22,016 nt of DNA from a virus. Below are positions 6,400-8,295 of the stretch, piece after piece. The stretch's first letter is position 1, and each line of letters opens with the position of its first letter. The notes under the pieces were generated by a model that saw only the letters and a program-made list of their open reading frames with translations, was not told the origin of the DNA and did no database searches. Made by a program: the position numbers and the translations under genes. The stretch lies in UHGV virus genome UHGV-1354680, one strand, 5' to 3'.

Positions 6400-8295
6400 T
6401 CAAATCTGAATCCATGTCGCTCCGTCGAACATGAATCCTATCTTGTCTCCACCGCTAAGCACCTTGGTAGAGTTGCCTGAAGTGACGATGTGACCTCCTG
6501 ATGATGGAACTATAGACAGCGTGAATGATGGTGATGCGTTTTGTAACCACCATGTGTAACCCGGGCTTATCACTCCACCTGCTTGAGTGGTGATGTTAAG
6601 CGTCGTAATGGATGAGTTACTAAGTGGCGTTAACCTCAGGAATGAAGAGTTAGTTGCACTGCTCCTCAGGTACATGCTTCCGATATTGGTATCAATGTTT
6701 TGCGTGTCGTAACCTGGTTTCGGAGCCCCAACTCCAAACACGTTCGCCTTATAATTGGTAAGCGTGTTGTTTTTATAGTTATTAAGATAGGTAATGCCAG
6801 CAAGTACATCCTGACTGTAGTTGATGGTAGGGAACACGTTGCTAATGTTAGAGCTTCCTACTAATGCTCCAATGTTTATTGAGTCGTTAGCATGCGTTGA
6901 TTCGTTTGTTATTCGTCCAGTTACGTTTGTCAGGTTAAGGAAGTTACATGTCTGGGCATCTATTAGCATTCCCGCTGCTTCACCTATAGCAACATTGCTG
7001 ATATTGGCTGTGTAAATTTTATCAACTGCAGTTCCAGCCAGGCAGATTGATGCAATGCGTGATGAACTCGCAGCTACGTTATTAATATTAATTTCATTAA
7101 TGACGTGCTCAGCCTGCACCACGATATCATAAGAGCAACCAGACGAGGTCACGTTACTTATGTTTACTTTTTGAAGTTGTGCATCCTGCGAGAAAGCCCA
7201 GACGCCAATAGATGTTAATCCATTACCATCAATAACAACATCACTAAGAATTGATTGGCTTCCATCGCCAAATACACTGTCTGATTTGATGATTATTCCG
7301 TTTTGGTTGTTTTTTACTACAACACCGCTTGATACGGAATAATTACATTTCTGTGCATAGCCATATAAGTTCTGGCAGCCAATGATATCTCTCACCGTTG
7401 AGTATTTGTAACCCTCACAGAGAATTGCATGGTAAGCGTCAGATGGGTTTCTTCCAAGACCTACACAGTTTCGGATGATACCAAACAGCCCATTCTTTCC
7501 AGTTGCGGAAAGCACTAGCGCATCACCACCAGAAGTGAATGTGGCTGAACCGTGGTCTACACCAAAGTTTTGCACCTGAACACGAGTTCCGGAAAATATC
7601 ATGGTACCGACAATGATGCTGCCGTTTTCCAGTTTGGATAGCGTCGCGTCAGGACTTGGGCGACGGACTCCCATAACGGATATTTTATCGGTGGATATGG
7701 TTGGCCCATTCCACACATAGCGTTTATTAAGCAGGAGCAATGTTTTCCCTGTAGAAGCACACTCAGCAATTGCCGCATTAATCGCCGTTGTGTCATCGGT
7801 AGTGCCATCACCCTTCGCGCCGAACTGATCAGGAGTTACGTACCACCCATTAGATGTAGTCAGGATGTCTAACTCTGCCTCGACAGTGGAATCTCCATAA
7901 CCAACAAGGCCAGCACCATCATGACCAGCCAAATCAGCCTTAAATGCTGGCAATGCCTGGTCCGGGTCATACTTCAGCACGTTTGGGAAATAGAATTGCT
8001 GAGCACCATAGGCATCATAAACAGCCATAGAATGGCCTTGCACGGTAACGAATTTAGCAATCTGTCCGTTATATACCGGATATCCAGCAGCGTTAATGAT
8101 GATTGGTTGCGAAACAGGAACGTGAGAACCATCTTCGTTCTCTACATAAACCTGAATCTGGTTTTCAGTGTTTACCGGGTCAGCGTCAATTTTCCCGATA
8201 TAAATCTTTCCATTAGCTACGGCTTTAAAAGAACGAGCCATAGTGAAGAGTTGCGAAGGCATACTCACTACAACATTGGGTGTAATGTCTGACAT
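6400..8295 (-). CDS. tailspike protein (P22 gp9-type N-terminal head-binding domain plus beta-helix receptor-binding domain)
   Basis: From the internal Met: [42 protein letters not shown]…[31 protein letters not shown], nearly colinear with the remembered P22 gp9 N-terminal domain. The rest is G/N/S/T-rich and repetitive, typical of right-handed beta-helix depolymerases. The track start at 8391 adds 32 codons with no SD. Confidence 0.85.

Follow-up and report, generated by a model that had tools for sequence, protein, structure and literature searches.

The tailspike gene of an Escherichia coli prophage, UHGV virus genome UHGV-1354680, raises the question of what receptor its product recognises. 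According to the original prediction, the gene encodes a mosaic in which a conserved P22-type head-binding domain is fused to an unrecognised beta-helix receptor-binding domain (RBD). The mosaic build was confirmed in the 22,016-nucleotide stretch of DNA analysed here (the window). The RBD is already known, however: the window holds an O16-type tailspike in a prophage copy, and published work has superseded the description 'unrecognised'. We put at roughly 0.8 the probability that the protein is an O16-specific tailspike, probably an endoglycosidase, of an Sf6/P22-like prophage.

The window is a Lederbergvirus prophage (an Sf6/P22-like temperate podovirus) at argW of an E. coli chromosome. Bases 1-4300 correspond to the fadL-mlaA-yfdC region of E. 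coli, and the gene order is tRNA-Arg(CCT) (4277-4351), an IntS-type integrase gene (4477-5670, plus strand), a UmuD'-like gene, the tailspike gene, genes for gp16-, gp20- and gp7-type ejection proteins, and then tail, head, portal and terminase genes. The Pfam families Phage_P22_gp16, Inj_translocase and P22_gp7 were matched upstream of the tailspike gene and an integrase downstream, and the backbone shares 95-97% identity with Sf6, HF4s and N7. No gtr or oac O-antigen-modification genes were found between the tailspike gene and int in this prophage, whereas at that place Sf6 has oac and HF4s has gtrABC. Over the overlap, the window was 100% identical to the NCBI E. coli draft genome GCA_044895785.1 and to a Logan assembly. 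The 4.6-kb chromosomal flank matched too many records equally well to point to a host lineage (best identity 99.5%, with 750 records at 99% or above).

Two in-frame starts had to be considered for the tailspike, since a second, longer ORF of 663 residues begins at 8391 on the minus strand.

6400-8295, minus strand: tailspike gene, 631 codons plus a stop codon (6400-6402), from the ORF list and its translation
8296-8391, minus strand: in-frame upstream extension of 32 codons, resembling a Sec/Tat signal peptide

In searches of the PDB, the ATG at 8295 corresponded to the very start of the solved Sf6 protein (residue 1), and the solved P22 head-binding chain aligned from query residue 2 onwards. 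This ATG is preceded by AAGG, and the 32-codon extension falls outside the homology with Sf6. The exact 631-residue protein was found on 16-18 public contigs under the NCBI name 'phage tailspike protein'; NCBI-named copies have 631 or 632 residues and that of phage APC_JM3.2 has 632, while the records of phages Bas106, Huey, Louie and Dewey give 664 residues, corresponding to a start 32 codons farther upstream. Because the start at 8295 matches the solved P22 and Sf6 proteins, has AAGG upstream and agrees with the length of the NCBI copies, we rejected the 663-residue ORF as the true product. The extension is most likely not translated within the tailspike, and the 664-residue start in some phage records is probably an annotation artefact. 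Scanned for promoters and terminators, the surroundings of the gene gave fewer sites than shuffled sequence.

The protein was divided as follows.

7957-8295, minus strand: head-binding (anchor) domain, residues 1-113, from PF09008 and the Sf6/P22 matches in the PDB
7846-7956, minus strand: linker or neck, residues 114-150, where the portable RBD module starts
6736-7845, minus strand: predicted right-handed parallel beta-helix, residues ~151-520, receptor-binding and presumed catalytic
6403-6735, minus strand: C-terminal all-beta domain in the model, residues ~521-631, probably a beta-sandwich

The assignment of the N-terminal ~115 residues to the P22 type was confirmed. Residues 1-113 matched the Pfam family Head_binding (PF09008) over the whole profile (1-113 of 113; E=8e-66, 219.8 bits for a cut-off of 24) and the solved N-terminal domains of Sf6 gp14 (7sg7) and P22 gp9 (2vky, 1lkt), with E-values from 1e-43 to 3e-65. 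They share 102 of 113 residues with Sf6 gp14 (90%) and 82 of 113 with P22 gp9 (73%). The breakpoint had been placed just after KYDPDQ, and the DNA agreed: blastn aligned window positions 7957-8303 with Sf6 at 85.6% identity and nothing deeper into the gene, and codon 113, the final one of ...KYDPDQ, ends at 7957. As also predicted, the rest of the protein is unlike the catalytic domains of P22, Sf6 and HK620. PDB searches gave no significant match to them past residue ~114 (none at all at E<=1 for HK620); the Sf6 alignment beyond the junction consisted only of the generic start-of-helix motif 'FGxxxDGxTDxxxAI' and ended at residue 182, and global identity to Sf6 in the rest of the tailspike was 19%. 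The richness in G, N, S and T held as well, these four residues making up 39% of the C-terminal 516.

A tblastn search with the RBD against 50,697 phage records matched 16, all of them Escherichia phages. Five of these, all Lederbergvirus, carry the same gene at the same genomic position as the window: APC_JM3.2 (ATN92736.1; 2018) and CurroJimenez/Bas106 (XPK40716.1), Huey, Dewey and Louie (2025). Direct alignment of the whole gene with these phages gave identities of 98.7-99.0% for the DNA, 97.0-97.9% for the protein and 96.3-97.5% for the RBD, which disposes of the claim that this domain is unrecognised. The tblastn identity of ~95% was treated as an underestimate, direct alignment giving 97-98% for the protein and ~99% for the DNA. 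Residues 1-122 are identical in the six proteins, and the window tailspike differs from the other five by 12-20 amino acids, partly clustered at 367-397, and by a missing Ala394. The window copy also differs from the five phages in being an integrated prophage, with an Sf6-like backbone at argW and a gp16-type neighbour of 759 residues unlike theirs.

Four of these phages, Bas106, Huey, Dewey and Louie, infect E. coli K-12 only if its O16 O-antigen has been restored, and genetic work has identified this O-antigen as their receptor (PMC11990801, PMC12243541); Huey, Dewey and Louie were kept for this very dependence of their plaques on restored O16 (PMC12243541). These tailspikes have been grouped, with AlphaFold-Multimer models, in an O16-targeting clade together with the RBDs of Kayfunavirus Bas105, Gamaleyavirus Bas96 and several siphoviruses (PMC11990801, Humolli et al. 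2025, Fig 11A). An O16 subtype of receptor-binding proteins had been defined in silico in 2023 by Pas et al. (PMC10408124), with minimum thresholds of 30% for identity and 60% for coverage; at 96.3-97.5% identity to the five phages, the window RBD belongs to it. Full-length homologous RBDs were also present in Kayfunavirus ElsieAttenhofer (Bas105), KarinMuster (Bas82), Bas70-73 and Bas77-80 (some of them Kagunavirus), which come from the same collection of O16-dependent isolates. At 100% coverage, the window RBD was 54% identical to those of Bas105 and Bas82 and 35% identical to those of Bas70-73; for Bas77-80, identity was likewise 35%. The anchor boundary of these proteins lies at the same 'LRxDL...GAxLVG' motif, but their anchors are unrelated (PF18668 or siphovirus-specific) and the divergence is far greater.

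The original prediction was meant to fall if the C-terminal domain turned out near-identical to an already characterised tailspike. The domain answers to that description in receptor specificity, but not in enzymology or structure. The role foreseen for the domain keeps its strength: a likely determinant of host range and a candidate depolymerase. As a discovery the case is small: publications already cover the protein, its mosaic construction and the receptor of its near-identical relatives, and NCBI has a name for the exact sequence. The tailspike may serve as a serotype marker, as its presence predicts a lysogen of serotype O16, now or in the past.

The RBD had no sequence relative in the PDB by single-sequence or profile searches, which returned just a generic GH55-type 'GDGvTDDTaAI' motif. 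It contains the motif 'FGAxGDGxTDDTxAI', typical of pectate-lyase-like beta-helices, and its match to PF12708 (Pect-lyase_RHGA_epim) scored under the gathering threshold. In an AlphaFold2 model built from 13 sequences, pLDDT was ~85-95 for residues 150-631 and 70-90 in the all-beta C-terminal domain; residues 1-149 were poorly modelled because the alignment is shallow there, and the helix drawn at 136-147 falls in a part where pLDDT stays under 50 (through residue 149). On this model, residues ~151-520 form a right-handed parallel beta-helix. The C-terminal domain matched PF25692 (Phage_depo_C) weakly (E=0.11), a family precomputed for the relatives P0002-P0004 and P0009. Relatives P0002-P0004 carry a homologous RBD on a different anchor (PF18668), homology starting at the 'LRxDL..GAxLVG' motif (residues ~118-130). 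An exhaustive search of representatives enlarged the family to 453 clusters at 50% identity (E<=1e-3), compared with the 10-12 relatives given by word-indexed protein searches, which saturated on this low-complexity sequence. The nearest solved folds were the A-module of AlgE4 (2pyg) and the Det7 tailspike gp208 (6f7k), with 16-17% identity to the RBD. AlgE4 works as an epimerase/lyase on uronates, a mechanism that is impossible on O16, a polymer devoid of uronic acid. AlgE4 and Det7 are fold neighbours and not functional models.

Conservation across 120 family members (homologues with E<1e-20) pointed to a candidate active site.

7279-7557, minus strand: candidate active site, codons D247-D339

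The candidate residues, with their conservation, are D247 (95%; in GVDHG), H289 (98%) and E294 (85%; both in HAILCEGY), K316 (96%), and K337 (90%) and D339 (77%; both in IIKSDS). In the model and the sequence, each is found where a strand ends or shortly behind it, with the strands following one another every 19-28 residues. Such spacing places them on successive rungs, the usual layout of an active-site groove in a beta-helix, and suggests that they are stacked on one face of the helix. The O16 unit, D-Galf-beta1,6-D-Glc-alpha1,3-L-Rha(2-OAc)-alpha1,3-D-GlcNAc (PMC6436433 Table 3), contains no uronic acid, which rules out beta-elimination by a lyase and favours hydrolysis. The RBD is therefore probably a hydrolase acting on O16.

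From these elements a mode of action can be proposed. Tailspikes of P22 and Sf6 are trimers docked on the tail hub, and solved complexes of both were among the PDB matches. Since the anchor and the genome are homologous to those of P22 and Sf6, the N-terminal 113 residues would, by analogy, dock a homotrimer onto the tail hub. Residues 114-631 would constitute a portable receptor-binding module made of the beta-helix and the C-terminal all-beta domain; judging from its relatives, it most likely binds the O16 O-antigen, and it probably cleaves the polymer hydrolytically in a groove likely formed by D247, H289/E294, K316 and K337/D339 on consecutive rungs. In this way the virion would make its way through the LPS and reach the outer membrane, at which the needle and the ejection proteins would then come into play. 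Sf6 gp14 and P22 gp9, which are endorhamnosidases (7sg7, 2xc1, 1lkt), have the same gene order and the same plan of anchor, beta-helix and C-terminal domain, and their mode of action on O-antigen is expected to be analogous.

Two other activities were weighed against cleavage of O16. The RBD could bind O16 without cutting its backbone, as a non-enzymatic adhesin or an O-acetyl esterase. We consider this very unlikely, because the D, E, H and K residues listed above are conserved at 77-98% in diverged homologues and stand in register on successive rungs, as is typical of an active site. To our knowledge, characterised deacetylating tailspikes have an SGNH or alpha/beta-hydrolase fold, unlike this beta-helix, which counts against an esterase. 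Moreover, podoviruses with a single receptor-binding protein must get through the O-antigen layer (PMC11990801). That the RBD targets a capsule, such as colanic acid, in place of O-antigen seems extremely improbable. This idea comes from a match to PHROG 8280 (E=2.7e-91), labelled 'tail spike protein with colanic acid degradation activity', and from the same label in the records of Bas106, Huey, Louie and Dewey. The O16 genetics contradict it, since these nearest phages depend on O16, and the solved colanidase 6e0v (phi92 gp150-type) was a generic match only (Foldseek E=1.3e-4, TM 0.24, 14% identity). We rejected the PHROG/Pharokka label on these two grounds; it is probably an annotation artefact.

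A finer question is whether the prophage allele has the same specificity as the phages isolated on K-12. An alignment of 20 near-identical alleles showed about three haplotypes and one particularly variable stretch.

7063-7239, minus strand: allele-variable stretch, residues 353-411

The window haplotype (T170, N173, A367, Q370, deletion of Ala394, H397) is common to other prophage copies. Within the variable stretch, sites 367, 370, 394 and 397 define the window allele, and 353, 370, 397, 409 and 411 vary in other alleles; two positions have three states (370, L/M/Q; 397, N/S/H). Compared with the K-12-isolated phages, the window RBD shows 12-13 differences and a deletion of one codon, several of them clustered at 367-397. 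The differences are mostly non-synonymous (pN/pS 0.5-2.1). A claim of selection on this basis was dropped, because the ratios derive from just 3-7 synonymous differences.

The prophage allele might accordingly have a fine specificity shifted away from the glucosylated K-12 form, towards unglucosylated O16, differently O-acetylated O16 or a related O-antigen. Besides the excess of non-synonymous changes, this would fit with the distinctness of the prophage haplotype and with the three-state positions 370 and 397 in alleles that are otherwise ~98% identical. It would also fit with the insertion site: argW is occupied by the window prophage, and in K-12 it holds CPS-53, a cryptic prophage with a GtrABS system that adds glucose to O16 and stops some O16 phages (PMC11990801). 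In addition, the GtrABS sensitivity of Kagunavirus phages tracks the tailspike clade that they carry (PMC11990801). We nevertheless find such a shift decidedly unlikely, as only ~13 of the 516 residues differ, the changes are too few for a selection test to reach significance, the window allele keeps every family-conserved residue, and Bas106 does not figure among the Gtr-sensitive phages (PMC11990801). A broader proposal, which we hold to be speculative and on the whole unlikely, is that the window allele is an O16 specificity variant (adapted for example to unglucosylated O16, in hosts without the GtrABS of CPS-53) with residues 370 and 397 as a specificity subsite and, separately, that the D247/E294/D339 groove represents an uncharacterised glycoside-hydrolase family. 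We retain the reading of an O16-specific, probably hydrolytic tailspike, for which the alleles offer a natural series to map specificity residues in O16-group RBDs.

The history of the gene appears to comprise two kinds of exchange. Homology at ~99% extends from 6363 to 8499 in Bas106, Louie and Dewey, from 5587 to 8499 in Huey and from 5693 to 8536 in APC_JM3.2, and thus takes in DNA upstream of the gene.

8296-8499, minus strand: upstream non-coding DNA travelling with the tailspike cassette, ~99% homologous to Bas106, Huey, Louie and Dewey

The extents of homology indicate that the most recent exchange unit was the whole gene, including the anchor, with ~200 nt upstream (window ~6363-8499). 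The neighbouring gp16-type DNA-transfer gene varies in length among these phages. The domain-level seam, which the alignments place directly after KYDPDQ, would be older than this whole-gene exchange. A second Lederbergvirus prophage (L020, GCA_037012965.1), near bioA, has a complete O16-type tailspike cassette. Just upstream of it, at 9496-9708 of L020 and beside a Mnt/Arc-type gene, we found 70 codons of an HF4s-type head-binding domain left as a stump (MSDITTNAVVVNPRPIF...). The presence of this stump beside an intact cassette marks it as the footprint of a whole-gene tailspike replacement.

We also searched for the gene in complete E. coli genomes. About 1,130 of them matched the first 338-355 nt of the gene only, i.e. 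the anchor. The RBD (the remaining 1,557 nt, 6400-7956) was found in 0 of 5,426 complete RefSeq E. coli genomes at megablast sensitivity, a set in which the reference O16 strain, K-12, is represented together with its derivatives. As no carrier was found among these genomes, the link between prophage host and O16 rests on the relatives, which suggest that the window allele and its host are O16. The absence contrasts with the 90%-identity cluster, which contains 184 E. coli sequences, and with the ready isolation of RBD-carrying phages on O16-restored K-12.

Two small reading frames flank the tailspike gene. Between it and int lies a gene of 98 codons (5770-6066, minus strand) for a UmuD'-like protein, which Huey and APC_JM3.2 also have and Bas106, Louie and Dewey lack. 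Beyond Met1, the protein starts exactly at the position of Gly25 in E. coli UmuD, where the self-cleaved, active UmuD' starts. Its residues 2-82 aligned with residues 1-82 of 1umu_A (E=1e-14), and a Thr (in 'GATH') was aligned with the Ser of the UmuD 'GDSM' motif, which we take to be the catalytic Ser60. The protein is shorter than the 116-residue UmuD' chain and, from its sequence, looks like a pre-processed UmuD' mimic. On the other side, the intergenic stretch preceding the tailspike gene contains a hydrophobic ORF of 23 codons (MDRDLLNFAFLMFGLVVGKLLFA; 8521-8592, plus strand) with an AGGAGG Shine-Dalgarno sequence upstream. It is convergent with the gp16-type gene, whose end it slightly overlaps, and possibly encodes a small membrane peptide or represents a moron.
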